From contig JABMNV010000106.1 of NCBI GenBank assembly GCA_013203475.1, forward strand, positions 1-59,957: DNA of 59,957 bases, read 5' to 3'. This document shows, piece by piece, positions 7,093 through 29,009 of the stretch. The notes under the pieces were generated by a model. It ran no database searches, was not told the origin of the DNA, and was given only the letters and a program-made list of their open reading frames with translations. The stretch's first letter is position 1. Each line of letters opens with the position of its first letter. This stretch comes from Acidobacteriota bacterium. Lineage in GTDB: Bacteria; Acidobacteriota; Vicinamibacteria; Vicinamibacterales; SCN-69-37. A program made the translations under genes and the position numbers.

Positions 7093-7806
7093 GTGAAACT
7101 ATCGGTCATCATGCCCGCCTACAACGAGAGGCGGACCATCCGAGAAATCGTCAGTCGTGTCCTGGCGGCCGAGTTGCCGGACATCGAGAAGGAAATTCTG
7201 ATCGTTGACGACGGGTCGACGGACGGCACACGAGACATCATCGCGGAGATGGATGGCACAGACGGCGTACGGGTGATCTATCAGGGGAGCAATCAGGGCA
7301 AGGGAGCAGCAGTGGCACGAGGCCTTCGAGAAGCCACAGGTGACCTCTTGTTGATTCAGGACGCCGACCTCGAGTACGACCCGGCCGAGTACGCACAACT
7401 CCTGCGGCCCATCCTGCGGGGCGACGCGGAGGTGGTGTACGGCTCACGCTTTCTCGGCTCACCGCACGGTCAGCGGGTGTTGTACTTCTGGCATTCGGTG
7501 GGCAACAAGATGCTTACGCTCCTGTCCAATGCCGTCACGGATCTCAATCTGACGGACATGGAAACCTGCTACAAGGCCATGACGCGGGAAGTAGCCGGCA
7601 AGCTCGACCTTCGCTCCCAGCGTTTTGGAGTCGAGCCTGAAATCACCTGCAAAGTGGCTCGTCTCAAAGTACGTATCTACGAAGTCCCGATTTCGTATCA
7701 CGGGCGCACGTATGCAGAGGGGAAGAAGATCGGCCTGAAGGATGCCGTGCAGGCCGCGTGGACCATTCTTCGCTACGCGCGCTGGTCACCCCGGACAGAC
7801 CACTAG
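7093..7806 (+). CDS. Glycosyltransferase family 2 (polyprenol-phosphate glycosyltransferase-like)
   Basis: SVIMPAYNE, VDDGSTDGT, QDADLEY, TDMETCYK and EGKKIG motifs. Confidence 0.9.
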   Translation: MKLSVIMPAYNERRTIREIVSRVLAAELPDIEKEILIVDDGSTDGTRDIIAEMDGTDGVRVIYQGSNQGKGAAVARGLREATGDLLLIQDADLEYDPAEYAQLLRPILRGDAEVVYGSRFLGSPHGQRVLYFWHSVGNKMLTLLSNAVTDLNLTDMETCYKAMTREVAGKLDLRSQRFGVEPEITCKVARLKVRIYEVPISYHGRTYAEGKKIGLKDAVQAAWTILRYARWSPRTDH

Positions 7807-7813
7807 TCGCCTC

Positions 7814-9781
7814 ATGCGGTCACTCATGACGCGGCGGGGTGGCCTCATCGCGACCGCAACGTACCTGGTCCTGGCGGTTGTCATGACCTGGCCTCTGGCG
7901 CGCGTGATCGATCATGAGATCGCGTCCGACCTTGGCGATCCGGTCTTCAACGCATGGGTCCTGCTCTGGACGGGCGGACAACTGATGGCGTTTCTGGGTG
8001 GAGACGTCACGGCGCTGAGCCGCTACTGGCATGGCAATATTTTCTTTCCCGAGCCATTAACCATCGCCTACTCAGAACATCTTGCCCCTCAGATGTTGCA
8101 AGCGCTTCCCATCCTCGCGGCCACCGACAACGTCGTGCTCGCCTATAACCTCCTGTTCCTGTCAACGTTCGTATTGTCAGGACTCGGCATGTTCCTGCTT
8201 GTGAGAGACATTACGGGAAGACCTGTGGCAGCGCTGGTCGCCGGCATCGCATTTGCCTTCGCACCGTACCGCTTTGCGCAACTCTCGCATCTGCAGGTGC
8301 TGTCGGCACAGTGGATGCCGTTTGTGTTGTACGGATTTCGACGTTTTCTTGAAACGAAGCGCCGACGCGCTCTGGTTGGGGGCTCGGCAGCCCTGGTAGC
8401 GCAGAACCTGTCGTGCGGCTACTACCTGCTGTTCTTTGCGCCCTTCGCGGGCGCGTATGTGCTTTACGAACTGGCTGTCAGACGCCGACTGAAGGATTGG
8501 GCCACGTGGCGTGCGTTCGGTCTCGCTGCGGTCGTCGTGGTCCTTGTCACGCTGCCGTTTCTGTTGCCGTATCTCGAGGTGAGAAATACGGGTGTGGGGG
8601 TGAGGCCGCTCGGTGAGATTCAGAGGTTCTCGGCAGACACGCACGCCTTCGTTACGCCGCCGCGGGTGAGTCTATTCTTGGGCGAACGACTCGCTGGGTT
8701 TGACAAGGGCGAGGGGGCAGCGTTCCCGGGCGCGGCGATTCTTTTGCTGGCGTCAGTGGGAATCCTAGTCGGTCTGTGTGAACGATACAGTCCGGCTCGC
8801 GTGCCGGCGTCACTTTCGCCCTGGCGCCAGGTGGTCGGTGGCGCTCTTCTGGTGCTGCTGGTCGCCCACCTCTACGCATCGACGACCCTGCTGGCGACGG
8901 GCAAGCTTTGGGTGCCATTTGGCCAGAGCTGGACCCTGTACCTCCGCGCGGGCCCGACGTTGCTGTGGACGTTGGTGCTGGCGCTGAGTTGGGACGTGGT
9001 CATGCGACGAACTCGCGAGGCGCGCACGCCGTGGCGGTTTTACACGGTCGCGGCGTTGGTCGCCGCATCGCTTGCCCTGGGACCCCAGATCGCCGTCGAG
9101 GGCCGGCTAATTTCACCAGGACCCTACGCCTGGCTCCTTGACTACCTCCCGGGTTTTGACGGTCTACGTGTCCCTGCGCGATACGTGATGCTCGTCACCC
9201 TGTTCCTGGCGGTACTGGCGGGAATTGGTGCGTCAGCCCTCATCGGACGCGCGCGCCGCTGGGGCACCATCTGCGCCATCGCAGCGGCGGTTTTCATGCT
9301 TGTCGAGGTCTGGCCTGGGCGGTTTCCAACAAACGTACCGCTCACCCAAAGCGATGAAGACAGCGAACGCGGTCTTGAAGTCGCGGCGGGCGAGCTCAGA
9401 GTGGGACGTGACATTCCGCCCATCTACAAGGTCATTCGTGACTCTCCAGGCACAGTCGTGCTCATCGAATTCCCATTTGGTGATCCCGCCTGGGACCTGC
9501 ACTCGGTCTTTTACGCCGGCTACCACCGGCAGAAGCTGGTCAACGGCTTCTCCGGGTTCTTTCCTGACTCGCAGCAGCACCTGATCGAGATGTTGAACTG
9601 GCGAACACGCGAACCAGAAACCGCGTGGCGCGCAGTGTCGGGCTCCGGGGCGACGCATGCACTGGTCCACGAAGCGGCGTTTTCAGACAGTCGGGGCCGT
9701 GACCTGATCGACTGGCTGTTCGCCTCGGGCGCCCGAGAGATATTAGTGGACGGAACCGACCACCTCTTTACGCTGCGCTGA
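7814..9781 (+). CDS. Polytopic membrane protein, probable GT-C (YfhO-like) glycosyltransferase
   Basis: Many TM segments; DLGDP, FFPEP..AYSEH, HLQ, GLRVPARY and VNGFSG motifs; follows the GT2 gene. Confidence 0.6.
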   Translation: MRSLMTRRGGLIATATYLVLAVVMTWPLARVIDHEIASDLGDPVFNAWVLLWTGGQLMAFLGGDVTALSRYWHGNIFFPEPLTIAYSEHLAPQMLQALPILAATDNVVLAYNLLFLSTFVLSGLGMFLLVRDITGRPVAALVAGIAFAFAPYRFAQLSHLQVLSAQWMPFVLYGFRRFLETKRRRALVGGSAALVAQNLSCGYYLLFFAPFAGAYVLYELAVRRRLKDWATWRAFGLAAVVVVLVTLPFLLPYLEVRNTGVGVRPLGEIQRFSADTHAFVTPPRVSLFLGERLAGFDKGEGAAFPGAAILLLASVGILVGLCERYSPARVPASLSPWRQVVGGALLVLLVAHLYASTTLLATGKLWVPFGQSWTLYLRAGPTLLWTLVLALSWDVVMRRTREARTPWRFYTVAALVAASLALGPQIAVEGRLISPGPYAWLLDYLPGFDGLRVPARYVMLVTLFLAVLAGIGASALIGRARRWGTICAIAAAVFMLVEVWPGRFPTNVPLTQSDEDSERGLEVAAGELRVGRDIPPIYKVIRDSPGTVVLIEFPFGDPAWDLHSVFYAGYHRQKLVNGFSGFFPDSQQHLIEMLNWRTREPETAWRAVSGSGATHALVHEAAFSDSRGRDLIDWLFASGAREILVDGTDHLFTLR

Positions 9782-9799: not shown

Positions 9800-10980
<1,181 letters not shown>

Positions 10981-10981
<1 letters not shown>

Positions 10982-12144
10982 TGGTAGAAAAGCCCGATCC
11001 TCCGAAGAGGTTCTTCGACGAATACACGCGCGGGTTTGACCGCACGGAGTTTCAGCGGCTTTTCACGCGTGATACGGCTGATGCGTACCGCTATTTTTCG
11101 CGTGGCCTTGATCTCAACGCACTCGCTTTGGCCCCCTGGTACAAGCGGTGGCCCACTCACGCGCGGCTCTTTTTCATCGCGTTCGCCATGCGTCTGTCGC
11201 CGGCACGACGGGTCTTATACGCCTTCGCGTTGATCTCGGCCGTGATCGGGCTGGTGCAGTTGTTCGACGGCTTCAGCACGGTACGGTTCTTCCTGTTCCC
11301 GTTCACGCTGGAGCTCTACCTGCCCGCGTGGGTGGAAGGCACCTCATGGATGGTGCTCGCGTTTTTCGCTATCCACCTGCTGGTCTTGATGGAGGTAGCC
11401 GATCGCCTGTCGCTCAAAGGCGAACTGGAAGTCGCGCGAGACATTCAGCTTGCCATGTTGCCGTTTGGATTGAAGGAGGCAGGAGACGCGCGGGTCTTCG
11501 GTACGACGCGGCCTGCCAACACGGTCGGCGGCGACTTCTACGACATCCTGCCACTCGAAGACGGGCGACTCCTGGTCGCTTTGGGCGATGTCGCCGACAA
11601 GGGGAGCCCGGCGGCCCTGCTGATGGCCCTCTTACTCGCCATGCTTCGAACGTTAGTGGACGAGGGTCTGGAGTCGACCCGGCTGATCGCCAGGCTCAAT
11701 GTCCAGATTTGCAAGCACAGTCCTGGCTCCCGGTTCATCACGTTCTTCTACGGGTTGTATAACCCGGCCGACGGTTCGTTGGAATACGTCAACGCGGGAC
11801 ACCTGCCTCCGATGGTCAGGCGCACAACGGGGGAAATTGAACGTCTGGAGGGAGGGGGGATGGCCCTCGGGATGTTTGAGAACGCAACCTATGAATCACG
11901 TCGCGCCACTGTCGGCATCGGTGACGCGCTGGTGTTATACACCGACGGAATCACCGAGGCGGAGGACCGCAATGGCGTGGCATTTGAGGACGAGGCGCTT
12001 GAAGCGGTGCTCAGGGACCGACAGGCTGAATCAGATCCCGAGGTGTTGGCGCGCGCCATCATTTCGGCTGTGGAGTCCCATGCGGGCGATCTGCGTTTGG
12101 CAGACGACCTGACGGTCGCGATCTTGACGCGAACCAATAGCTAG
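10981..12144 (+). CDS. Membrane-anchored PP2C (SpoIIE/RsbU-type) phosphatase
   Basis: AR-IQ, VGGDFYD, GDVADKG, NAGH, YTDGITEA and DDLT motifs; TGATG overlap with kbl. Confidence 0.9.
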
Positions 12145-12153
12145 GAGGCTGGC

Positions 12154-14868
12154 GTGTTGACCCGACCCCTTCCATTGCTCGGCATGGTCGCGATGGTCGT
12201 GATGCTTGCCTCTCAGGCCGCACAGGAGCCACAGGTGCGGCCGATGCAGGCCGACGGAGTGCTTCGGCTCCTGACTGACCTCGAGGGAGCGCTATCGACG
12301 AACAACGTGGACGAGCTCGTCAGGCTGGCGTCGACCAGCTTGCCCACGGCCGAGTTCAAGACGTTCGTCCAGTCGTCGTTTGGCGAAGGGCAAGACACCG
12401 CCGCCGTCCGGGAACGTGACCGCCGGCCCGTGGGCGCTGGATTCAGGGTGCTCGTGGAGATGCTGATCGGCCGCGGCGGTGTTGGCAAGATCGGCACGTG
12501 GCAACTGCTCGTGCTGCCAAGACTCGTCCAGCCAGGCGATGACCAAGCCGGTCGTTTCGAACTGGCCGGGATGGCGCCGGTCGCGTCGATTGACGGCTTG
12601 GTCCAGCTCACCCTGGACACCACACAGCAGTACGCCGCGCGCGATTTGGTCTTCACCGGACCAGGGCTGACCGTCCGGATGTCTTCGGGGTCCGTGTTCC
12701 TGGCACGCGTTGAGGCGGGGGCTACCGCGCTGGTCTTCCGAGGCAAGGGCGTCATGCTCTTTGCGCCCGACGATCCGGCCGAGCAGGTGCAGGTGCGTGC
12801 CGTGAGCGGCAAGCCCGCCCTCGAGACCGATCTCAAGTCGGCCTTCATCCGGATCAATCCGGGCGACTTCGACAACCACCTGACGGCGTCGCGGTTGGTG
12901 CCGGTGGTGACAAATCAGGACGATCTCAGGCGCGCCGGCGAGTTATTCGAAGAGTTCAGCCAGAAGAGCTACGCGTTGAATCTTGGCGACCTGACCACCG
13001 AGCGCTGGTCACTATTGCCACCAGTCGGCGACCTGCTCGCAGAGCTTCATACCGACGACTTCGAGACCCTCACCTACGTCCGGGCCAAAGACGATGCGGA
13101 GGACGTGTCGCTGTTTGATCGCGAGAAGGGCCACAACATCTCCGTCTACGCTTCGGCGGAGCGCCTCACGTCGCGAGGTCGGTACTACAACGAGGATGAC
13201 GCCGCGGCGTATGACGTGGAGCACTACGACGTCGATGTTCGAATCGATCCGGAACGCGAATGGATCAGCGGCAGCGGATCGCTGCGTCTCAAGACGAAAC
13301 AGGATGGACTGACCACGCTCTCGCTCAGGCTGGCCCAGTCCTTGACGGTCTCGTCTGTCTCATCACCGCAGTACGGGCGCCTGCTGGCCTTGCGCGTGGC
13401 CGGTCGAAGCAGCGTGCTCGTCAGTCTCCCGGCCGCGGTCCCTGCAGGCACGGAGTTGATCATCGAGATGGCCTACAGCGGTCGGGTCCCCGCACAAATC
13501 ATCGGCAACGAGGCTCTTCTAGTGGGTGCCGACTCTCAGCAAACCAGGCCGTATGCGCCTGAGCGCACAGTCCTGCCTGAACCGCGGTACCTCTACAGCA
13601 ATCGTTCGCACTGGTATCCGCAGGCGTCGGTCACCGACTTTGCCACCGCGTCCCTCAAGATTACGGTGCCCGCGCAATTCCAGGTCGTGGCCTCCGGCAG
13701 TCTCCTGAGTTCTGTTGTGACGCCAACGGTTGAGGAGCCGACGGACAAGGGGGACAGTCACGCCGAACGTGCCGTCAGCTTCTCGGCAGATCGTCCCCTG
13801 CGCTACGTCGCCTGTGTCATTTCGCGTTTTGTCTCCGTGGGCCAGGCACAGGCGACTGTCGCGGCGCTCGCGCCAGCGTCTCCGGGTGTCGGCGACGGCA
13901 GCCCCGGTACCGTCAACATTGATGTTGTGGCGACACCCCGACTGCGGCGTTCCAACGGGGAGCTGCCTGAACGCACGGCAGAGATCGTGGAGTTCTTCGC
14001 CTCACAAATCGGTGAGGCTCCGTATCCAGACTTTACGTTGGCGACCATGGACGACGAGCTGCCAAGCGGTCACAGCCCAGCCTACTTCGCCATCTGGAAC
14101 CAGCCAGTCCTGCCGACAAATCTCACGTGGCGCGACGACCCGGTCTCGCTCGCCGGACACCCGTTCTTTTTCTTGGCACACGAGGTGGCTCATCAATGGT
14201 GGGGACAGGCCATTGGCTGGAAGAACTACCACGAACAGTGGCTGAGCGAAGGGCTCGCCCAGTACTTCGCGGCCCTGTACGCCGGCCACGACCGTGGTCC
14301 GGAGACCGAGCGACGCATGTTCCTCCAGATGCGCGGGTCGGCCCAGGACCTGTCGAAGTACGGCCCCGTCCACCTGGGGTACCGGCTCGGACACGTCCAG
14401 GGCGACGCGCGAATCTTCCGAGGGCTGGTCTACAACAAAGCTGCGGTGGTCCTCCATATGCTCCGCCGGTTCATCGGCGAAGACGTGTTTGCCAAGGGTA
14501 TCCGCCGATTCTATCGGGATAATCGATTCCAGAAGGCGGGCACCGGCGACCTCAGGCAGGCACTCGAGGCAGAGTCCGGCCAGCCGCTGGAGCGGTTTTT
14601 AGAGCGCTGGATTCACGGATTCACACTGCCGGAGCTCAAGCTCTCGTGGCGAATGGCCGACGCCACGCACGTGACCGTTCGGGTGGAACAGCTCGGGGAC
14701 ACGTTTGACCTGCCGCTGACGGTCACCCTTCGACTGGACGGTGGCCAGCAGGAGCAGGTCACCCTGTTGATCACGACCAAGGTTCATGAGACCACGATTC
14801 CAGTGGAGGGCGTGGTTCAGCGCGTGGACACCAGGGACGACATGAGTCTGGTCACGATTCGAAGGTAA
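12154..14868 (+). CDS. Secreted M1-family zinc aminopeptidase
   Basis: Signal peptide; HEVAHQWWG...WLSEG (HExxH-18x-E) and YNKA motifs. Confidence 0.85.
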   Translation: MLTRPLPLLGMVAMVVMLASQAAQEPQVRPMQADGVLRLLTDLEGALSTNNVDELVRLASTSLPTAEFKTFVQSSFGEGQDTAAVRERDRRPVGAGFRVLVEMLIGRGGVGKIGTWQLLVLPRLVQPGDDQAGRFELAGMAPVASIDGLVQLTLDTTQQYAARDLVFTGPGLTVRMSSGSVFLARVEAGATALVFRGKGVMLFAPDDPAEQVQVRAVSGKPALETDLKSAFIRINPGDFDNHLTASRLVPVVTNQDDLRRAGELFEEFSQKSYALNLGDLTTERWSLLPPVGDLLAELHTDDFETLTYVRAKDDAEDVSLFDREKGHNISVYASAERLTSRGRYYNEDDAAAYDVEHYDVDVRIDPEREWISGSGSLRLKTKQDGLTTLSLRLAQSLTVSSVSSPQYGRLLALRVAGRSSVLVSLPAAVPAGTELIIEMAYSGRVPAQIIGNEALLVGADSQQTRPYAPERTVLPEPRYLYSNRSHWYPQASVTDFATASLKITVPAQFQVVASGSLLSSVVTPTVEEPTDKGDSHAERAVSFSADRPLRYVACVISRFVSVGQAQATVAALAPASPGVGDGSPGTVNIDVVATPRLRRSNGELPERTAEIVEFFASQIGEAPYPDFTLATMDDELPSGHSPAYFAIWNQPVLPTNLTWRDDPVSLAGHPFFFLAHEVAHQWWGQAIGWKNYHEQWLSEGLAQYFAALYAGHDRGPETERRMFLQMRGSAQDLSKYGPVHLGYRLGHVQGDARIFRGLVYNKAAVVLHMLRRFIGEDVFAKGIRRFYRDNRFQKAGTGDLRQALEAESGQPLERFLERWIHGFTLPELKLSWRMADATHVTVRVEQLGDTFDLPLTVTLRLDGGQQEQVTLLITTKVHETTIPVEGVVQRVDTRDDMSLVTIRR

Positions 14869-18914: not shown

Positions 18915-19013
18915 GAAGTCGTTCGACGTCACACGGGGTGCGTCTCTCTCACGACAGGCAGGCGCTGGCATCGCAGCATCTCGTGGGTCTTTGGTTGACG
19001 CTCGAACGGCTTC
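18915..19013 (+). ncRNA. Candidate ~100-nt structured small RNA
   Basis: Stems GAAGUCGUUCGA/UCGAACGGCUUC, CGUCA/UGACG and CACGGGGUGC/GCAUCUCGUG. Three G-U pairs form only on the + strand. Confidence 0.55.
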
Positions 19014-20799
19014 ACTGCGTCAAGATCTTGAGGGCGACAACGGTGGTGTCGTCGTTGCGGGGGAACCCATCTCGATGGGCGTCCACGGCCTCAACGATCG
19101 AGTCGATGATTTCCTTTGCGGTCAGGTGCTTGGTGCTCGCCACGATGTCCAGCAACCGCTCACTGCCAAACTCGTCGCTTTGTCGATTCATCGCTTCCGT
19201 GACGCCATCTGAACAGAAGACGAAGACATCTCCCGACGACAGGGGCAGACTCACCTCGTCATAGGTCATCCCGGAGAACGACCCCAGAGGCACGCCGGGC
19301 GCTTCAATCAGACGACACTCATCGGCAGTGGCGCGAACGGGATACGGCAATCCCGAGTTCGACAGCGTGACCATCTTTCGCTTGAGGTCAAAGATCGCAT
19401 AACACAGCGTGCAGTAGTACTCCTCAAGCTTGCGCTCATGCAGGATCGTGTTGATCGACATCAACACCGCAGCCGGCGACGACCGTTCGGGAACATAGCG
19501 CCGACGGAAGGTGCGGCCACGCACCAACTCTCCGGCAAACACGCTGTACAGCGCGGCGGGAACCCCTTTGCCTGACACGTCACCAAGCGCGATGATCAGG
19601 GTGTTTGACTCTGGTACGAGGTAGTCGTAAAAGTCGCCGCCCAGTTCCAGTGCCGCAGAAAACGACGCGTGAACATCCACGCCCTTTAGGCGCTTTGGCA
19701 ATTTGGTTGGCAGGAGTGCGGCCTGCACACGCCGGGCGAATTTCAGTTCTTTCTCCAGCCGCGCTTCGGTCTCTGAGACCTCTTCGTAGAGGCGGGCGTT
19801 CTCAATGGCGACCGCAGCCTGGCTTGCCAGCAGCGTCAGAATCTCGACGTCTCGTTTGCTGAACGCATCCAGGTCAGGGCTTTCCAAATCGAAGACGCCC
19901 ACGCAGCGGTCCTTGAGCAACATGGGCACCGCCAGTTCCGAGCGCACGTCGTCGACGACCTTGATGTAGCGGGGATCCTTGGACACATCGGGCACCAACA
20001 CGGCCTCACGATGCAGGGCGGCGTAGCCGACCAAGCCCTCGCCCATGGGAATCTTGGGTAATTCGACCCGGTCGCCAAACTGCACGGCCACCTTGATTTC
20101 AAGCTCGTCGGTGGCCTCGTTGAGCAACAGGATTCCGAACGTGCGGTAGTCGACCACCCGACGCGCCAGCTGGGCGATCCGCTCCAGGAGCAGGTCCAGA
20201 TCCATCAACGCGGCCACGTCGCGGCCGATCTCGGCCAGCGTCTCGAACGCCTCGGCGTCGAGGCGCTGCTGCTCAAACAGACGCGCGTTGACAAGCGCCA
20301 AGGCCACGTGAGCACCAAACTGGCGAAGAATGGCCGCGTCTCGCTCAGAATACATGTCGCGCGATCGGCTCAGCACATTGAGGGCACCGATCGACTTCTT
20401 CTTGTGCACAAGCGGCACGGCCATCGTGGAGGCCATGCCTGGGACCAATTCGACGTATTGGGGCTCCAGGCTGATGTCCCCCACCAGCCGAGTCTCCTGC
20501 CTGGTGATCACCTGGCCGACCAGACCGTGAGTCACATGGGGGTGGTAGTGCGAGGTGTCGGGGTAGCCCACGGCGTATCCGATGCTGAGCTCCCCGCGTT
20601 TTTCATCGTGGAGGTAGACCGCAAACGCGTCGAACGGTATGAGGCGGCCGATGAGTTCGGGGATTTTCTCAAGCAACTCGTCCAGATCGATCACGGACGC
20701 CACCCGACGACCCAGGTCGAACAACGTCAACAAGATGTCGCGTTCGCTGGTACCCACAGAGAGGGGAGAGGAGAGACGATCGGTAGAATGCGAACTCAT
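19012..20799 (-). CDS. GAF-GAF-PP2C (RsbU-like) phosphatase
   Basis: Two GAF repeats (SELAVPM, AVAIENARLY); GGDFYD, GDVSGKG, SDGVTEA and DDTT motifs. Confidence 0.9.
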   Translation of the reverse strand: MSSHSTDRLSSPLSVGTSERDILLTLFDLGRRVASVIDLDELLEKIPELIGRLIPFDAFAVYLHDEKRGELSIGYAVGYPDTSHYHPHVTHGLVGQVITRQETRLVGDISLEPQYVELVPGMASTMAVPLVHKKKSIGALNVLSRSRDMYSERDAAILRQFGAHVALALVNARLFEQQRLDAEAFETLAEIGRDVAALMDLDLLLERIAQLARRVVDYRTFGILLLNEATDELEIKVAVQFGDRVELPKIPMGEGLVGYAALHREAVLVPDVSKDPRYIKVVDDVRSELAVPMLLKDRCVGVFDLESPDLDAFSKRDVEILTLLASQAAVAIENARLYEEVSETEARLEKELKFARRVQAALLPTKLPKRLKGVDVHASFSAALELGGDFYDYLVPESNTLIIALGDVSGKGVPAALYSVFAGELVRGRTFRRRYVPERSSPAAVLMSINTILHERKLEEYYCTLCYAIFDLKRKMVTLSNSGLPYPVRATADECRLIEAPGVPLGSFSGMTYDEVSLPLSSGDVFVFCSDGVTEAMNRQSDEFGSERLLDIVASTKHLTAKEIIDSIVEAVDAHRDGFPRNDDTTVVALKILTQ

Positions 20800-20862
20800 T
20801 GGTGGGCTGACGCGCGGGTGGAACTGCTTGCAATTATACTTGGTTCTCCAACAAAGCCGACC

Positions 20863-23986: not shown

Positions 23987-24541
23987 ATGCGTACGAATTT
24001 TTCTATTTTGGGGCGGTCACGTGTCCCGCAGTCATTGGTCGCGCTGGCTGGCCTGTTCACGATTTCGTGTGCACCTGCGGCTGATTCGACGGCTGTGGAG
24101 CAGGCGGCGCAGGCGGCTGCACCAACCCCGCCTCCCGCGACTGGATTTCAGGTGGCGCCAGGGCTCCCGCCCCTCCCCACCGCTGGCCTGGCGGCCGCAC
24201 CTCGGTCCGTAGAGACCGTCCGTGCGGTCTACGAATTCGCGGCCAGTCACCCTGAGGTGCTCGACTACGTGCCCTGCTTTTGTGGTTGTGAAAGTGCGGG
24301 CCACAAGAGCAACACCCATTGTTTTGTCGGCGCTCGCAATTCAGAGGGTACCGTCACGCAGTGGGATTACCACGGACTCACTTGAGGGATCTGTATTGAC
24401 GTCGCGCGTGACGCGATGCAAATGTACAACGGTGGTACCTCGGTGAAAGACATTCGATCGTCCATCGACAAGAAATACGCGGGTGCGATGACCCGCACGC
24501 CGACACCGGCACCGCCCGACGGTGGCGGCGATCGGCACTAG
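23987..24541 (+). CDS. PCYCGC-motif lipoprotein, probable selenoprotein (UGA at 24383-24385 = Sec), 184 aa
   Basis: Lipobox TISC; PCFCGC..GHKSN.HCF; WDYHGLT-UGA-GICIDVA continues in frame through IRSSIDKKY and TPTPAPP to TAG at 24539-24541. Confidence 0.85.
24392..24420 (+). promoter_or_regulatory. Bacterial SECIS-like hairpin
   Basis: UGUAUUG-A-CGUC[GCGCGU]GACG-CGAUGCA. The apical loop starts with G, 18 nt after the UGA. Confidence 0.7.
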
Positions 24542-24548
24542 GACTCTC

Positions 24549-26078
24549 GTGGCCAGCGGTCGCCACCCCTCGCTTCCGGACGATGCGTTTTTTCATCTGT
24601 TCGAGGGACTGCGCGAGGGCGTCTACATCGGGTTGATCGGGGCCGACTCCTCCGCAACGTTCGCCGCCAATCCCCACCTCCGGTTGATCCTGGGGTGGGC
24701 CGAAGACGTGGCCACCAGCGAGGTTCGGCCATTTGAAGCCGACCGTTTTGTCGACCCGATCGCACGCGACAGCTTCGTCTCACTGCTCAAGCGGGACGGC
24801 GCCGTTCACGATCACCTGCTCCGCCTCAGACGGGTCGACGGCACGGCGGTGTGGATCGAAGTCACGGCCCGGGCCGGACCGCTCGCTGATTCGCTTCGTG
24901 TGGAAGCCGTGATGCGCGACGTCACCGAGCGGAAGAAGCTCGAGGACCAGGCCCGGGAGGTCTTCCACCAACTCTCACAGGCAGAAAAGCTTGCGGCCCT
25001 GGGACAGACGATGTCCGGCGTCGCGCATGAACTCAATAACCCTTTGGCCACGGTGTTGGCCTGCGCTGAGCGCCTGGCCGGACGCCAACTCGACGACCAG
25101 ACATCACGCGACCTGGACGCGATTCATAACGCCGCCGAACGCGCAGCCCGAATCGTACGAAACCTTCAGACGTTTGCCCGCAAACGGCATACGACACGCA
25201 CGATGGTAGACATCAATCACGTGATGCGCGACACGCTCGCCCTGCGTGCGTATGAACAGCAAGTCGCCAATGTCGTGATCGTTGAGGCCCTGGCGTCGGC
25301 ATTGCCACAGGTGTTTGCCGACCCGCATCAAATTCAGCAAGTACTCCTCAACCTCGTCATCAACGCCGAACACGCGATGCTTGGCGCACACGGTCGTGGC
25401 TTGATGATGCTGCGCTCGTGGCATGAACCTGAGCGCGACGCGGTGCTGCTCGAAGTGAGCGATGACGGCCCGGGTATTCCCGAGGACGTACAGGCCAAGA
25501 TCTTTGATCCGTTCTTTACAACAAAGGCCGTCGGTAAGGGCACCGGGCTTGGGCTGACGGTCGCCTACGCCATCGCTCACGAGCACGGTGGCCGGATCAG
25601 CGTGTCGTCCGTTCCGGGCGGTGGCGCGTCCTTCGTGCTCGAACTGCCGTCAGGTGGCACGCACGTTCGGGCGCCTGAGTCGTCGTCGGCGCCTCCAGCC
25701 GCGGAAGTGCCCGTGGGAACGCGGGCCCTGGTCGTGGAAGACGAACAGGCGCTGGGTGAGGCCGTGGCAGACACGCTCAGGGACGCCGGGTTCGAAGTGG
25801 ATCGTGCGGCCGATGGCGAAGAGGCGATCGCGCACACACAAACGCGCGCCTACGACGTGATCATTTGTGACCTGAAGATGCCGCGCGTGGACGGCATGGA
25901 ATTTTTTGATCATCTCGCGGCCACGGCGCCTGCGCTGACGAAGCGCTTGATCTTCGTGACGGGCGATGTGGCGGGAACCGAAGCGGAAGCGTTTCTTGAA
26001 CGCAGCGGCTGCCATTGGCTGGCCAAGCCGTTCCGGTTACGCGACGTCGTACGTCTGGCGCGTGAAGTGATCGCGTAG
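24549..26078 (+). CDS. Cytoplasmic hybrid histidine kinase (PAS-HisKA-HATPase-REC)
   Basis: RDVTERK, AHELNNPL, QVLLNLVINA, DDGPGI, FFTTK, GTGLGL; receiver VEDE/CDLKMP/KPF. GTG at 24549 after AGGA preferred. Confidence 0.9.
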   Translation: MASGRHPSLPDDAFFHLFEGLREGVYIGLIGADSSATFAANPHLRLILGWAEDVATSEVRPFEADRFVDPIARDSFVSLLKRDGAVHDHLLRLRRVDGTAVWIEVTARAGPLADSLRVEAVMRDVTERKKLEDQAREVFHQLSQAEKLAALGQTMSGVAHELNNPLATVLACAERLAGRQLDDQTSRDLDAIHNAAERAARIVRNLQTFARKRHTTRTMVDINHVMRDTLALRAYEQQVANVVIVEALASALPQVFADPHQIQQVLLNLVINAEHAMLGAHGRGLMMLRSWHEPERDAVLLEVSDDGPGIPEDVQAKIFDPFFTTKAVGKGTGLGLTVAYAIAHEHGGRISVSSVPGGGASFVLELPSGGTHVRAPESSSAPPAAEVPVGTRALVVEDEQALGEAVADTLRDAGFEVDRAADGEEAIAHTQTRAYDVIICDLKMPRVDGMEFFDHLAATAPALTKRLIFVTGDVAGTEAEAFLERSGCHWLAKPFRLRDVVRLAREVIA

Positions 26079-26096
26079 CGTGATCGTAGAAAGTGT

Positions 26097-26846
26097 CTAG
26101 GCGACGGCCTGAGACTCGAAGGCCAGCGCCGGCATCTTCGCGGGCATCAGGGCTGTGCGCAAGCGAGCCACCGCACGGGCATGCAGTTGTGACACGCGCG
26201 ATTCGTTCACGCCAATATCCTTCCCAATCTGCTTCATCGTCGCTTCACGGAAGTAGTAGAGGCTGATAATCCGGCGCTCGCGGGCCGGCAGGGACGCCAA
26301 GGCCGCTCGGACACGCGCACGTGATTCGTTGTCTTCGTATTCCCGATCAGGCGCGGGGGGTTCGCTCGGCACGAGCACTGCGGGCAACGTGGAGCTGTTC
26401 ACCGAATCGTGGTTGGCCATCGGCGAGGTCGACTCGATCGTGCTGATTCGAAGGATCGTGCGTTCGAGTCGGGACTCATCGGCCCCAACTCGCTTGGCCA
26501 GGTCGGAAAGCGTCGGCTCGGCGCCGAGCTCGCGGCGAAGCGATTCGCGGGCGGCCTCAAGCTCACGGCGTTGGCGGCGCACGCCGCGAGGCCAGGCGTC
26601 ACGGCGCAGGGCGTCGATCATGGCACCGCGCACCCGGCGCTCAGCAAACGTCTCAAACTTGATTCCCCGAGCCTCGTCAAAACGGTGCGCCGCGTCCATA
26701 AGGCCAATCACGCCATCCTGGACTAGGTCACTCACGTCGACGGAGTTGGGCATCGTGGACGCCATGCGTCGGGCGAGTGATTCGACGAACGGTAGTGTGG
26801 CGACGACCCGGTCGTGCTGGTGATTGGCAAGTGGCGAACGCTGCAT
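26097..26846 (-). CDS. RNA polymerase sigma factor, FliA/WhiG (sigma28) family
   Basis: DLVQDGVIGL, KFETFAERRVRGAMID and IGVNESRVSQLH motifs; GGAGG RBS. Confidence 0.9.
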   Translation of the reverse strand: MQRSPLANHQHDRVVATLPFVESLARRMASTMPNSVDVSDLVQDGVIGLMDAAHRFDEARGIKFETFAERRVRGAMIDALRRDAWPRGVRRQRRELEAARESLRRELGAEPTLSDLAKRVGADESRLERTILRISTIESTSPMANHDSVNSSTLPAVLVPSEPPAPDREYEDNESRARVRAALASLPARERRIISLYYFREATMKQIGKDIGVNESRVSQLHARAVARLRTALMPAKMPALAFESQAVA

Positions 26847-26896
26847 AGACCCTCCAGGTGAGCCGGCCAGCTAGTTGGCCGAACGCTGCTATGAAG

Positions 26897-26913
26897 GGCA
26901 ACACGGATGCCAA
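26897..26913 (-). promoter_or_regulatory. sigma54 (-24/-12) promoter of the sigma28-family gene
   Basis: Minus strand TTGGCATCCGTGTTGCC: GG-N10-GC, about 50 nt upstream of the ATG. Confidence 0.8.
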
Positions 26914-26975
26914 GTCGATAAGCGAAGAAAGAACAAAACTGTCTTCGGCCGGTGACTTCGCACTAACCGTCTTGT

Positions 26976-26988
26976 TATCAGTGATTTA
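26976..26988 (+). promoter_or_regulatory. IHF binding site
   Basis: TATCAGTGATTTA matches WATCARNNNNTTR; lies between the promoter and the enhancer sites. Confidence 0.6.
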
Positions 26989-27043
26989 AGAGGTTGTTTC
27001 GGGGTGTGAAGGTGTGTGCAACGGCGTGCTTTTTTGGGACGAA

Positions 27044-27092
27044 GTGGTCAATCGTATGACAGGCCGTGAAGGGCGTGGTCAAAAATATGACA
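27044..27092. promoter_or_regulatory. Tandem enhancer (UAS) sites GTCA-N6-TGAC
   Basis: GTGGTCAATCGTATGACA (27044-27061) and GTGGTCAAAAATATGACA (27075-27092), with a 31-bp period. Confidence 0.7.
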
Positions 27093-27335
27093 CTAGGAAG
27101 TCTCTGGGATGGGGATGATTTGGCGAATCTGCTGGCTGGTTCGGATGGCCTCAAGTGCGCCTGCGACCACTTGGGTCGCCCGGGCTCGATGCGTCTCTTC
27201 AGCCAGGCGGTGCTCGAGTAGTTCGGCGTTCGCCAGGATAATCCCGAGTTGGTTATTCAGGCGGTGAAAGAGCTGGTTGAGGTCGCGTTCTGTCGTTGTC
27301 GCGCCAACATCTGCCCGAATGTCTGGTCGAGCCAT
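27093..27335 (-). CDS. Stand-alone HisKA/DHp micro-protein (80 aa)
   Basis: LFHRLNNQLGIILANAELL H-box helix plus a second helix; no ATPase or sensor domain. Confidence 0.7.
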   Translation of the reverse strand: MARPDIRADVGATTTERDLNQLFHRLNNQLGIILANAELLEHRLAEETHRARATQVVAGALEAIRTSQQIRQIIPIPETS

Positions 27336-27342
27336 GATCTGG

Positions 27343-27546
27343 TCAGGCAGACCGATGCAGGTCGAAGGCGCTCGTGGTGGGAGCATGAGCATCGCGCCAC
27401 AGGGAATCTTCGAAGATGCGAACGGACCCGCCGGCCGTTCTGACGTACTGCACCTTGCGGCTGGCGATCCAGTTGTAAATGGTCCGGCGACTGACACCCA
27501 CCACTTCACACGCTCTGGGAATTGAGACGGTCTTCCGTTCAAGCAT
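27343..27546 (-). CDS. Small excisionase/MerR-like (BldC-like) HTH DNA-binding protein (67 aa)
   Basis: ACEVVGVSRRTIYNWIASRKVQYVRTAGGSVRI. Confidence 0.8.
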   Translation of the reverse strand: MLERKTVSIPRACEVVGVSRRTIYNWIASRKVQYVRTAGGSVRIFEDSLWRDAHAPTTSAFDLHRSA

Positions 27547-27556
27547 ACGTCCGGAA

Positions 27557-27584
27557 CTATCGGCCGCCTCGGCGGCGAACTGTA
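27557..27584 (-). promoter_or_regulatory. Putative sigma28-type promoter
   Basis: Minus strand TACA-N16-GCCGATAG versus TAAA-N15/16-GCCGATAA; ends 10 nt before the HTH ATG. Confidence 0.6.
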
Positions 27585-27614
27585 GGTCTGTGTCAAAATA
27601 CCGGCGCGCTCCAC

Positions 27615-29009
27615 ATGTCTGCTGACGAACTTCATCCCCTTCACCTGCTGCTGGTCGACGACGAGGCCGCGTTTCGGGAAGTGATTGCGGAGCGTCTGGC
27701 TGAGCACGGGTATCGAGTTGAGCAGGCGGGCACGGGCGAAGAGGCGCTCGAGCGACTCAACGACTTTGCCTTCGACATTCTCCTGACGGATCTTCGATTG
27801 CCCGGCGTGGACGGGCGGCAAGTGCTCGACGAGGCGTTTGCGCGCTACCCCGACATCATTGCGGTGGTGATTACGGGATTCGGCACTGTGCGCGAGGCGG
27901 TTGAGGTCACCCAACTGGGCGCTGAAGGTTTCATCACAAAGCCGTTTCAGTTCGAGGAATTGGTGCACGCGCTGCACACAGCGGTCGAAAAGCGGCGGCT
28001 GCGCTCAGAGAACGCGTACCTGCGCGAACAACTCCTCACGCGATTTCACCTCGGCGGCATCATTGGCCAGGCCGCGCCGGTGGTGCAGATGCTCGAACTG
28101 ATTCAGACGGTGGCTGTGACGGCAAGCACCGTGCTCATCACAGGAGAGACGGGCACCGGAAAGGAATTGGCTGCGCGGGCGATTCACGACGCCAGTCCGA
28201 GGCGGTTGCAGAAATTTGTGGCGATCAACTGCAGCGCCATTCCAGAGACGTTGCTTGAGGCGGAGTTGTTTGGGCACGTGCGGGGCGCCTTCACGGGCGC
28301 GGTGGCCAATCGGCAGGGCCGGTTGGAGCAGGCTCATCGAGGAACGTTGTTCCTCGATGAGGTGGGCACTATGAGCCTGCCGCTGCAGGTCAAGTTGCTG
28401 CGTGTCCTGCAGTCACGGGAGTTCGAGCGCGTCGGCGAGTCGCAAACCGTCAAGGTGGATGTGCGCGTGATCGCGGCCACCAATTCGGACCTCAAACAAA
28501 TGGTGACTGAGGGCTCCTTCCGCGAGGACCTGTATTACCGGCTCAACGTGATTCCCGTGCACGTGCCCGCGCTCAGGGAGCGCCGGTCGGATGTGCCGTT
28601 GCTGGCGCAGCACTTCCTCGATCGGTTGAGCAAAGAAACACCGTCGCGGGGGAGGGTCACTATCGCCCAGGATACCCAGCAGGCCTTGATGGCCCACTCC
28701 TGGCCTGGCAATGTCCGTCAGTTGGAGAACGTAATGGAGCGCGCGTTTGCCCTATCGCCAGGACGCGCGCAACTCGAGTTGGCCGATTTGCAGGAAGATA
28801 TTCGGGGAAGCGTGGCCCCGTTGACGTCTGAGTCCGTGGCTTTCTCAGCCGAAGGTGTTGACTTCGGCGACTTAGTGGCGCAGTTTGAACATGCACTGAT
28901 TCGACGCGCCCTTGAACACAGCGGTGGAAACAAACGCGTGGCGTCGGATTTGCTGAAGATCAAGCGCACGACCTTGATCGAGAAACTTAAACGCCTGGAG
29001 CGTTCCTGA
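27615..29009 (+). CDS. sigma54-dependent response regulator (NtrC family, REC-AAA+-Fis HTH)
   Basis: VDDE, DLRLP, GETGTGKE, GAFTGA, FLDEVG, FREDLYYRLNV, WPGNVRQLEN and a C-terminal HTH. Confidence 0.95.
   Translation: MSADELHPLHLLLVDDEAAFREVIAERLAEHGYRVEQAGTGEEALERLNDFAFDILLTDLRLPGVDGRQVLDEAFARYPDIIAVVITGFGTVREAVEVTQLGAEGFITKPFQFEELVHALHTAVEKRRLRSENAYLREQLLTRFHLGGIIGQAAPVVQMLELIQTVAVTASTVLITGETGTGKELAARAIHDASPRRLQKFVAINCSAIPETLLEAELFGHVRGAFTGAVANRQGRLEQAHRGTLFLDEVGTMSLPLQVKLLRVLQSREFERVGESQTVKVDVRVIAATNSDLKQMVTEGSFREDLYYRLNVIPVHVPALRERRSDVPLLAQHFLDRLSKETPSRGRVTIAQDTQQALMAHSWPGNVRQLENVMERAFALSPGRAQLELADLQEDIRGSVAPLTSESVAFSAEGVDFGDLVAQFEHALIRRALEHSGGNKRVASDLLKIKRTTLIEKLKRLERS

Follow-up and report, generated by a model that had tools for sequence, protein, structure and literature searches.

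We analyzed a 59,957-nt stretch of contig JABMNV010000106.1 (assembly GCA_013203475.1), from a member of the Vicinamibacterales, an order of Acidobacteriota that is common in soils and little studied. This whole stretch is referred to below as the window. As read with Pfam and NCBIfam profiles, it contains a cassette of five genes that encode a hybrid histidine kinase, a sigma factor of the FliA/WhiG (sigma28) family, an 80-amino-acid protein that resembles the dimerization and histidine phosphotransfer (DHp) region of a kinase, a 67-amino-acid helix-turn-helix (HTH) protein, and an NtrC-type activator of sigma54. Across the order, these genes are kept together, along with the predicted promoters and binding sites between them. 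The sigma factor seems to be independent of flagella, and its putative promoters have a −10 box that differs from the flagellar one. The best-supported wiring, which we consider quite likely given the conservation of these genes and sites, is a transcriptional cascade: the kinase would act on the activator, the activator and sigma54 would turn on the gene for the sigma28-type sigma factor, and this sigma factor would transcribe the genes for the HTH and DHp proteins.

A five-gene cassette in the Vicinamibacterales

The kinase gene (forward strand) and the sigma gene (reverse strand) are convergent, as they also are in relatives. The DHp and HTH genes lie upstream of the sigma gene on the same strand, and the activator gene is divergent from the HTH gene, with 68 bp between them. 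Coordinates are given in Table 1. The original prediction, which a model made from the sequence of the window, had proposed this set of genes, and all five of its members were found.

Table 1. Features of the cassette and related candidates (positions in the window unless a contig is named)
Feature	Position	Strand	Remarks
Hybrid histidine kinase, soluble	24522..26078	+	HisKA, HATPase_c, and C-terminal Response_reg above Pfam cutoffs
FliA/WhiG-family (sigma28-type) sigma factor	26097..26846	-	TIGR02479, 196.8 bits versus cutoff of 189.6
Candidate sigma54 (-24/-12) promoter, TGGCATCCGTGTTGCC	26897..26912	-	TGGCAT-N5-TTGCC; about 50 nt 5' of sigma ATG, followed by GGAGG ribosome-binding site
AT-rich block	26976..26999		Two overlapping or adjacent one-mismatch matches to the consensus for integration host factor (IHF); between activator sites and -24/-12 promoter
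Three direct repeats, (G/T)CAC(A/G)	27005..27029	-	10-bp period; candidate site for a DNA-binding protein
Two candidate activator palindromes, GTCA-N6-TGAC	27047-27060, 27078-27091		Centers 31 bp apart
DHp-only protein, 80 amino acids	27093..27335	-	Proposed histidine phosphotransfer protein; helical hairpin with kinase H-box FH24xLNNQL
Excisionase-family HTH protein, 67 amino acids	27343..27546	-	PF12728 HTH_17, TIGR01764; first gene of the putatively sigma28-driven pair
Candidate sigma28-type promoter, TACAGT-N14-GCCGATA	27558..27584	-	CTACAGTT-N12-GCCGATAG; 5' of HTH gene
NtrC-type sigma54 activator	27615..29009	+	Receiver, AAA+ with GAFTGA, Fis-type HTH
Basic protein, 203 amino acids	29013..29624	+	Candidate sixth, less conserved member; 4 nt 3' of activator gene
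Secreted Cys-containing protein, 150 amino acids	contig C133:18465-18917 (L151:2466-2918)	-	Second candidate target; relaxed promoter match 5'

The kinase has the domains that define a hybrid kinase (HisKA, 47.8 bits; HATPase_c, 86.1 bits; Response_reg, 73.8 bits) and no Hpt domain. It had been described as a PAS hybrid kinase. The three Pfam domains agree with the hybrid part of this description, but the N terminus is just weakly PAS-like and falls below the threshold (PAS_9, E = 0.044, 14.5 bits versus a cutoff of 27). The best NCBIfam alignments of the kinase are to EspC- and CckA-type hybrid kinases, under the cutoffs for those families. Its start codon is uncertain because the relatives align from around residue 23 to 31.

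The activator has the receiver (PF00072, 87.2 bits), Sigma54_activat (PF00158, 243.6 bits), and HTH_8 (PF02954, 41.4 bits) domains of the NtrC class of bacterial enhancer-binding proteins, and GAFTGA is present in its translation. It scores under the cutoffs for all of the named equivalogs, of which AtoC is the best (433 versus 714) and NtrC scores 398 versus 558.6. By these profile scores, it is a member of the NtrC class but none of the named regulators.

The sigma factor passes the FliA/WhiG model narrowly: regions 2 and 4 are above the Pfam cutoffs, and region 3 is at 22.5 versus 25.3. The HTH protein matches HTH_17 (PF12728, 34.7 versus 27) and the excisionase model (TIGR01764, 36 versus 28.8), and its nearest solved sequence is the phage excisionase Xis Gp37 (4j2n, E = 0.0033). 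It had been called BldC-like. This is correct at the level of the HTH_17/excisionase superfamily, as it shares a single small HTH_17 domain with the excisionases and with the MerR-like HTH proteins of the BldC type, but it lies outside the BldC family model (NF033787, 18.1 versus 77 bits). It is likely to be a secondary regulator.

The original prediction had suggested a synteny search, and the gene set is syntenic. Among 30 loci that are centered on the sigma gene, 26 contain all five genes together, and the activator gene is syntenic in 26. Three of the 4 incomplete loci are truncated by contig ends, and the other lacks the HTH gene. Centering on the DHp gene instead gave 29 loci, with the sigma gene adjacent in 28, the activator gene in 29, the HTH gene in 26, and the 3' end of the kinase gene in 25.

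We then surveyed 401 genomes sampled across the phylum, of which 36 are other genomes of the same order and 2 are other genomes of the class. Orthologs of the sigma factor were found in 34 of the 36 (60 to 76% identity; within the genus, identity reaches 87%), and the DHp protein was found in 30 of the 36. Neither protein was found in the 2 other genomes of the class. In these 2 genomes and in the other orders sampled, no ortholog of the sigma factor was found and the best matches were at 43% identity or less, while the DHp protein had four weak matches elsewhere among the 401 genomes, all inside long open frames. The close homologs carry source labels of Vicinamibacterales or Acidobacteria. 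In this sampling, the cassette is limited to one order, which by these labels is probably the Vicinamibacterales. Since it is in almost every genome of the order, it offers an entry point to the physiology of these bacteria.

Conserved candidate promoters and binding sites

To count the predicted sites, we used 56 non-identical loci of relatives in which the sigma gene and the gene for the 80-amino-acid protein are adjacent; these come from many families of the one order. In the window, the 246-bp gap 5' of the sigma gene contains, in minus-strand order, two palindromes, phased CAC repeats, an AT-rich block, a -24/-12 site, and a GGAGG ribosome-binding site. The pattern TGG[CT]A[CT]-N5-[CT]TGC is present 5' of the sigma gene in 52 of the 56 loci, and in another set it is present in 30 of 30. 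The source genome also contains rpoN.

The palindromes are about 140 to 180 bp away from the -24/-12 promoter on its upstream side, and the one farther from it directly adjoins the stop codon of the DHp gene. At least one GTCA-N6-TGAC site is present in 52 of the 56 loci, and at least two are present in 41. In the 3.58-Mb source genome, there are 2 pairs of such sites, versus 0 in a reversed control; the other pair is on contig C250 and was judged to be likely coding, which would leave the pair in the window as the sole intergenic one.

An IHF site had been proposed in this gap as well. The AT-rich block contains two one-mismatch matches and recurs in the relatives, but the IHF consensus is not enriched in the window (16 matches versus 13.65 expected). 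Three or more phased CAC repeats were seen in 22 of the 56 loci, mostly from the same family. All of these are among the 52 loci with an HTH gene, versus 0 of the 4 loci without one, but these numbers are too small to judge. That the HTH protein binds the phased CAC repeats is speculation.

The other candidate promoter lies 5' of the HTH gene. A strict sigma28 pattern is present in 26 of the 56 loci, and CTAnn-N16-17-CCGATA is present in 28 of the other 30 (54 of 56 in total). In the relaxed form, the CCGATA box lies 5' of the HTH gene, or of the gene for the 80-amino-acid protein if the HTH gene is absent, and CTAnn is always at a fixed distance. For example, relative G030 lacks the HTH gene and has the promoter directly 5' of the DHp gene. 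Across the order, the promoter takes the form CTA(A/C)(A/T)n-N16-17-CCGATA. The consensus for target promoters of FliA and WhiG is TAAA-N15-GCCGATAA. From the recurrence of these sites, we infer that the cassette sigma factor uses CTA...CCGATA promoters. In the source genome, TACAGT-N14-GCCGATA has one exact match. The −10 box GCCGATAG ends 10 nt before the ATG of the HTH gene, so in this genus the mRNA would have little or no leader. There is no terminator-like site on the minus strand between the DHp and sigma genes, so transcription from this promoter might read through into the sigma factor's own gene.

Because these elements are conserved at orthologous positions in the relatives, they are more than chance matches. 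The paired upstream palindromes, the -24/-12 promoter before the sigma gene, and the sigma28-like promoter before the HTH-DHp pair had all been read from the window, and all three recur as described above. Conservation across about 56 loci also supports the proposed order of the cascade, from the activator and sigma54 to the sigma28-type sigma factor and then to the HTH and DHp genes.

A sigma factor that seems to be non-flagellar

The original prediction had noted that the window contains no flagellar, chemotaxis, or flgM genes and had named a search for flagella in the genome as a check. This absence extends to the whole source genome. In profile searches of the assembly (264 contigs, 3.58 Mb, 95.8% complete), none of six markers had a match: Flagellin_N, FHIPEP (FlhA), FliG_C, FlgM (PF04316), CheW, and Hpt. 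The cassette sigma factor is the single copy above the TIGR02479 cutoff in this genome.

Among 41 relatives, the sigma factor has an ortholog in 38, of which 27 gave no match to flagellin. All 12 of the flagellin-bearing genomes have an additional FliA paralog, with around 38 to 42% identity. In 9 of them, this second FliA is on the same contig as the flagellin genes (relatives G028, G026, G038, G024, G023, G032, G013, G034, and G025; loci L140-L150 and L182-L190). The flagellin promoters that we read have TAAAGA-N~15-(C/T)CGATTAC in 11 of 11 cases and CCGATA in none, whereas the box of the cassette is CCGATA(G/C). This suggests that cells of flagellated relatives run two sigma28-type regulons side by side, each insulated from the other.

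A tree of 42 sequences resolves into three groups: the cassette sigma factors (support of 100/100), the flagellar FliAs of the order (100/97), and the FliAs of other orders (98/90). The clade of cassette sigma factors has a stem of about 2.3 changes per site and short internal branches; long-branch effects are possible. Because there are just three groups and no outgroup, a duplication inside the order cannot be read from this tree.

Given the separate FliA beside the flagellin genes and the different −10 box, the cassette sigma factor appears to be a separate, non-flagellar paralog, and these sequence comparisons strongly support a non-flagellar reading, as had been proposed. The features by which a flagellar FliA is recognized, namely co-occurrence with and control of flagellar or chemotaxis genes, were not found for the cassette sigma factor. 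Its candidate regulon is not purely flagellin and chemotaxis genes, and the sigma factor is present in the 27 relatives with no detected flagellin.

One genome from the same genus contains a second, degraded copy of the sigma gene at a contig end (G016:C6:35-745). This copy has 46 to 64% identity and in-frame stops, and it is accompanied by a second, likewise degraded copy of the sigma28-type promoter.

A DHp-only protein that may take part in phosphotransfer

The 80-amino-acid protein does not belong to any Pfam family and has no match to Hpt (PF01627) and no HisKA match of its own. Its family is large: it includes 3,674 clusters at 90% identity, all annotated as hypothetical, and 318 representatives at 50% identity. 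Among the 150 representatives listed, lengths range from 55 to 182 amino acids. Matches of the family to the Pfam models VMAP-M2 and Val_tRNA-synt_C were rejected as noise.

Several lines of evidence link this family to the DHp regions of kinases. His24 is invariant in 48 of 48 diverse members, within the motif FHxLNNQLGIILANAELL. When compared with hhalign, the profile of the family aligns His-to-His with the H-box of the neighboring kinase (probability of 58%, E = 9.6e-5). AlphaFold2 predicts a two-helix hairpin (helices 10-43 and 47-73) with a predicted local distance difference test (pLDDT) score of 85.4. A two-helix hairpin with a conserved phospho-accepting histidine on helix 1 is what defines a DHp region, and the model has both features. 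The top folds in the PDB are the DHp regions of ZraS, of the kinase in the kinase-regulator complex 6lgq, and of GacS.

Other results weigh against a DHp assignment. The E values from the fold search were 0.58 or worse, which is expected for a hairpin and is not significant. No meaningful match was found when the protein was compared to the sequences in the PDB. Weak matches to HisKA (PF00512) were seen in 14 of the 48 members (best E = 8.2e-4), but 0 of the 48 reach the cutoff. Also, the acidic residue that follows the phospho-accepting histidine has been replaced in this family (HR, HL, or HQ). Thus, the description of this protein as DHp-only, which goes back to the original prediction, agrees with the invariant histidine, the hairpin model, and the His-to-His alignment, but homology to HisKA is weak.

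We also predicted the structure of a complex between two copies of the DHp protein and the receiver of the activator. The score was 0.62, and the best of 3 controls was 0.00. Of 80 solved complexes, 58 reach this mark, as do 2 of 110 mismatched pairs. At least 93% of contacts are shared between the runs, and the pLDDT of the partner is at least 84. In the model, His24 and helix 1 contact helix 1 of the receiver, the loop after the acceptor Asp60, and the beta5-alpha5 loop; the predicted geometry is that of canonical transfer. The model speaks for docking but not for specificity. However, the prediction may pass merely because of its likeness to solved kinase-regulator complexes, and the controls are silent as to which receiver is preferred.

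Gene losses give a mixed picture. In relative G367, the kinase has no receiver and stops just past the ATPase domain (L203 (G367:C1) 7671-8807, minus strand), and the DHp gene is missing. G367 keeps the HTH, sigma, and activator genes, the palindromes, and the -24/-12 site, so it looks like a natural two-component version of the cassette. On the other hand, relatives G223 and G038 lack the DHp gene and retain the receiver of the kinase. Of the three DHp-less genomes that we examined, then, just one has lost both the receiver and the DHp gene. In G038, a candidate transposase takes the place of the DHp gene, between the HTH and sigma genes. This open reading frame (L105 (G038:C3) 10827-12191, minus strand) encodes 454 amino acids and is IS256-like by reading.

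Based on the invariant histidine, the lack of Hpt, the docking model, and the co-loss in G367, the DHp protein might be the phosphotransfer step between the receiver of the kinase and the activator, beyond any feedback. We see the case for this role as evenly balanced. The original prediction had cast the DHp protein as a feedback element. The sigma28-type promoter does place its gene in a loop, but its features fit a partner in phosphotransfer better than an element of feedback alone. Because the DHp gene is sigma28-driven, as predicted, a relay of this kind would close a positive loop. A difficulty for this proposal is that the DHp protein would be needed upstream of its own sigma factor, so basal expression must be assumed.

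We considered whether the DHp protein might act as a brake. It could sequester or dephosphorylate the receiver of the activator, or it could form mixed bundles with the DHp region of the kinase; either way, negative feedback would limit the sigma factor to a pulse. A gene that is transcribed from the sigma28-type promoter lies downstream of the step that its product acts on, as would be expected for a brake, and the predicted docking on the receiver fits sequestration as well as transfer. The two genomes that have lost the DHp gene with the hybrid kinase intact are also understandable, as the loss of a dispensable modulator would be tolerable. There is even a precedent among the fold matches for regulatory pairing of two DHp regions (RetS-GacS, 7n0e). 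However, neither sequestration nor heterodimerization requires a histidine, yet all 48 diverse members have one at this position. There is also no conservation of the acidic residue at His+1, which matters for the phosphatase activity of HisKA proteins. Furthermore, the genome has no Hpt match to serve the hybrid kinase, and in G367 the receiver of the kinase and the DHp gene are both absent. Overall, we consider a brake to be unlikely, if less so than the other rival explanations.

It is improbable that the DHp-like protein is instead an anti-sigma factor of the cassette sigma factor, that is, an analog of FlgM or RsiG under the control of the sigma factor itself. It is common for the genes of anti-sigma factors to be controlled by their own sigma factors, and the DHp protein is small and helical, is encoded beside the sigma gene, and is under the sigma factor's own type of promoter. 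Also, no FlgM homolog was found in the genome. But the most conserved feature of the DHp protein is the kinase H-box with its invariant histidine, it has no Pfam likeness to FlgM, and it is predicted to meet its partner through the canonical face for docking on receivers. The cyclic di-GMP motif of RsiG was not seen on reading the sequence of the DHp protein, although no search for it was made.

Candidate targets of the sigma factor

The original prediction had proposed a genome-wide scan for the promoter to define the regulon. The scan recovers the cassette's own site, but the motif is not enriched across the genome. With the strict pattern, 41 genomes gave 34 matches, nearly all of which are the cassette's own site, versus 12 in a backwards control. 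When mismatches were allowed in the source genome, there was 1 exact match and there were 4 one-mismatch matches, versus 13 in the control, and the relaxed pattern gave 4 matches versus 6 in the control. Similarly, GCCGATA occurs 24 times in non-coding upstream DNA of this genome, as compared to 20.7 ± 10.3 for 30 permuted heptamers (with a crude gene call).

The single further conserved target that we found, as judged from upstream sequences, is the gene for a small secreted protein of 150 amino acids (Table 1). This protein does not belong to any Pfam family. Its nearest named clusters in the Atlas are lipocalin-like, but with scores below 0.9, so this is just a lead. A CCGATA box in the forward orientation is present in 21 of 28 upstream regions of its homologs, versus 0 of 28 on the opposite strand. 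These boxes often have CTAAAG, CTACAG, or TATAGA about 24 nt upstream, and the conserved promoter is also found in genomes without flagellin. The gene is divergent from a candidate peptide deformylase-like (def-like) gene, and some genomes contain several paralogs of the gene for the secreted protein. The original prediction had raised a non-flagellar cell-state program as a possible output; none of our results points to a developmental or cell-state program.

Two other matches in the source genome were rejected. First, the gene for a second NtrC-type activator (contig C146:1589-2998) has a one-mismatch promoter match, but its GGCGATA box shows no conservation across 27 relatives, and TACAGT at this locus is −10-like. 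Second, a relaxed match on contig C174, which is 5.7 kb long and by reading may be phage-like, lies in apparently coding DNA. In many relatives (loci L112-L139), CTACAGTG is found 7 to 30 nt 5' of the start codon of the second activator gene, and TATAAT is found 5 to 8 nt 5' of the start codon of the def-like gene. This suggests that mRNAs with a short leader or none, transcribed from TAnnnT −10 boxes, are frequent in this genus.

Could we have over-read the wiring? TACAGT or TAAAGT might be a housekeeping −10 box, CCGATA might be an operator or leader element, and the gene order might reflect a conserved neighborhood. In this genus, TACAGT is also a −10-like box near the start codons of unrelated genes, such as the unrelated activator gene in relatives, so its assignment as a −35 box rests on its fixed spacing to CCGATA. 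And housekeeping genes that flank the cassette are often syntenic as well (FabZ-like, Dus, NusG-like, SurA-like, Mfd, and a GAF-GAF-SpoIIE phosphatase), so part of the synteny of the cassette does reflect a conserved neighborhood. Both points weigh against the cascade. Nevertheless, the distance between the two blocks is constant in many families that differ in the spacer and the leader, and an unlinked gene family is also preceded by CCGATA and, about 24 nt upstream of it, a block of the CTA type. Also, in relatives G033, G358, and G020, the flanks are rearranged but the core genes are still together. We therefore consider it very improbable that the wiring is an over-reading.

Proposed mechanism

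The binding steps, the phosphotransfer steps, the direction of the feedback, and the physiology are what we infer from the genes and sites. First, the soluble hybrid kinase would sense a cytoplasmic cue, autophosphorylate, and pass the phosphate to its own receiver. Second, the DHp-only protein, as a dimeric four-helix bundle, would take the phosphate on His24 and deliver it to the receiver of the activator. Third, the activator, bound to the two GTCA-N6-TGAC sites, would act with sigma54 to open the -24/-12 promoter of the sigma gene. Fourth, the new sigma factor would transcribe the HTH and DHp genes from CTAnnn-N16-17-CCGATA, probably reading through into its own gene. Finally, the additional DHp protein and sigma factor would reinforce the switch by positive feedback. 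The outputs would be the excisionase-type HTH protein and at least one small secreted protein that is encoded elsewhere in the genome. We lean slightly toward this chain as a whole, that is, toward a self-contained, order-specific cassette that switches on a re-purposed, non-flagellar sigma factor.

A bolder proposal, which we find possible but doubtful, is that the bare DHp hairpin is the smallest kind of phosphotransferase and that the positive-feedback relay forms a bistable switch to a non-flagellar state, by way of a re-purposed FliA paralog with altered promoter specificity.

Comparison with known systems

In polar flagellates such as Vibrio, Pseudomonas, Legionella, and Campylobacter, the two-component systems FlrBC, FleSR, or FlgSR act with sigma54, and FliA follows. 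The cassette is similar in that a two-component kinase, an NtrC-type activator, and sigma54 would act ahead of a sigma factor of the sigma28 family, and in the TAAA-type −35 and CCGATA-type −10 blocks that this sigma factor would recognize. It differs in that the source genome has no flagellar, chemotaxis, or FlgM matches, the cassette sigma factor is separate from the flagellar FliA of the order and seems to use another −10 box, and the kinase is a hybrid, with a DHp-only protein in place of any Hpt. That the sigma factor passes the FliA/WhiG model and that polar flagellates as a rule control fliA through an activator and sigma54 might suggest ordinary or vestigial regulation of flagella or chemotaxis by a plain FliA, but this is the least credible explanation and is contradicted by the data: the sigma factor is found in 27 relatives with no detectable flagellin and in a source genome that lacks all six markers, flagellated relatives have a separate FliA by the flagellin genes, the −10 box differs in 11 of 11 flagellin promoters, and the sigma factor is in a separate clade on a long stem.

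Cascades from sigma54 to sigma28 are a textbook feature of flagellar regulation, and most of the sigma28 factors known to act outside it come from Streptomyces and Chlamydia. In the cassette, such a cascade would be detached from flagella in a third phylum. In flagellated relatives, it lies in the same genomes as a true FliA, and the diverged −10 box could keep the two regulons apart. The cassette thus looks like a clean natural case of the duplication, rewiring, and insulation of a sigma factor.

In the Actinomycetota, WhiG1 and WhiG2 represent flagellum-linked and non-flagellar clades of sigma28 within one phylum (PMC13595943). In the same paper, WhiG is described as having three known targets in Streptomyces venezuelae, among them two regulators (whiH and whiI), and WhiG2 is controlled post-translationally by RsiG, an anti-sigma factor that is armed by cyclic di-GMP (PMC13595943). 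WhiG is another flagellar-type sigma factor that was co-opted for a non-flagellar role, and it provides a precedent for a small regulon that is led by regulators. In contrast to WhiG2, control of the cassette sigma factor is apparently transcriptional, by sigma54 and the activator, with no RsiG or FlgM seen, and the cassette is from another phylum.

Chlamydia is not flagellated, and it uses sigma28, along with sigma54 and CtcB/CtcC, for late non-flagellar genes (PMC7482065, PMC12282069). The likeness is that a sigma28-family sigma factor and an NtrC-type pair with sigma54 are both in a non-flagellar role. However, we saw no sign there that sigma54 transcribes the sigma28 gene, no DHp-only protein is known to take part, the activator is of another type, and the organisms are unrelated.

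The DHp-only protein differs from ChpT and Spo0B, which also carry a degenerate catalytic-like domain. It is predicted to consist of nothing but a hairpin of two helices, with about 60 ordered residues, and it has lost the acidic residue after the histidine. With 80 amino acids and two helices, it does not have the combination of a DHp-like bundle and a catalytic-like domain that marks proteins of the ChpT/Spo0B type. ChpT is the DHp-type histidine phosphotransferase of the CckA-ChpT-CtrA relay (PMC9981736). The cassette is similar in that an Hpt-less hybrid kinase of the CckA/EspC type is paired with a DHp-like protein with a candidate transfer histidine, which is predicted to dock on the receiver by the canonical face. 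This unannotated family looks like a minimal phosphotransfer module, and if this is correct, then it extends the known forms of phosphorelay proteins.

We searched the literature on sigma factors of Vicinamibacter, non-flagellar FliA/WhiG, RpoN and FliA in acidobacteria, and stand-alone DHp phosphotransferases, and we found no description of the cassette; supplements such as that of PMC13595943 were outside the scope of this search.

Other genes near the cassette

Two other genes recur near the cassette. The 203-amino-acid protein has no match in Pfam or NCBIfam. It is encoded 3' of the activator gene in 6 of 12 extended loci, with 42 to 68% identity, and weakly in relative G223. It is made up of a conserved N-terminal region of about 100 amino acids and a basic Gly/Pro-rich tail. 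The gene for the GAF-GAF-SpoIIE (PP2C) phosphatase, at 19012-20808 on the minus strand of the window, is kept near the cassette in 7 of the 12 extended loci.

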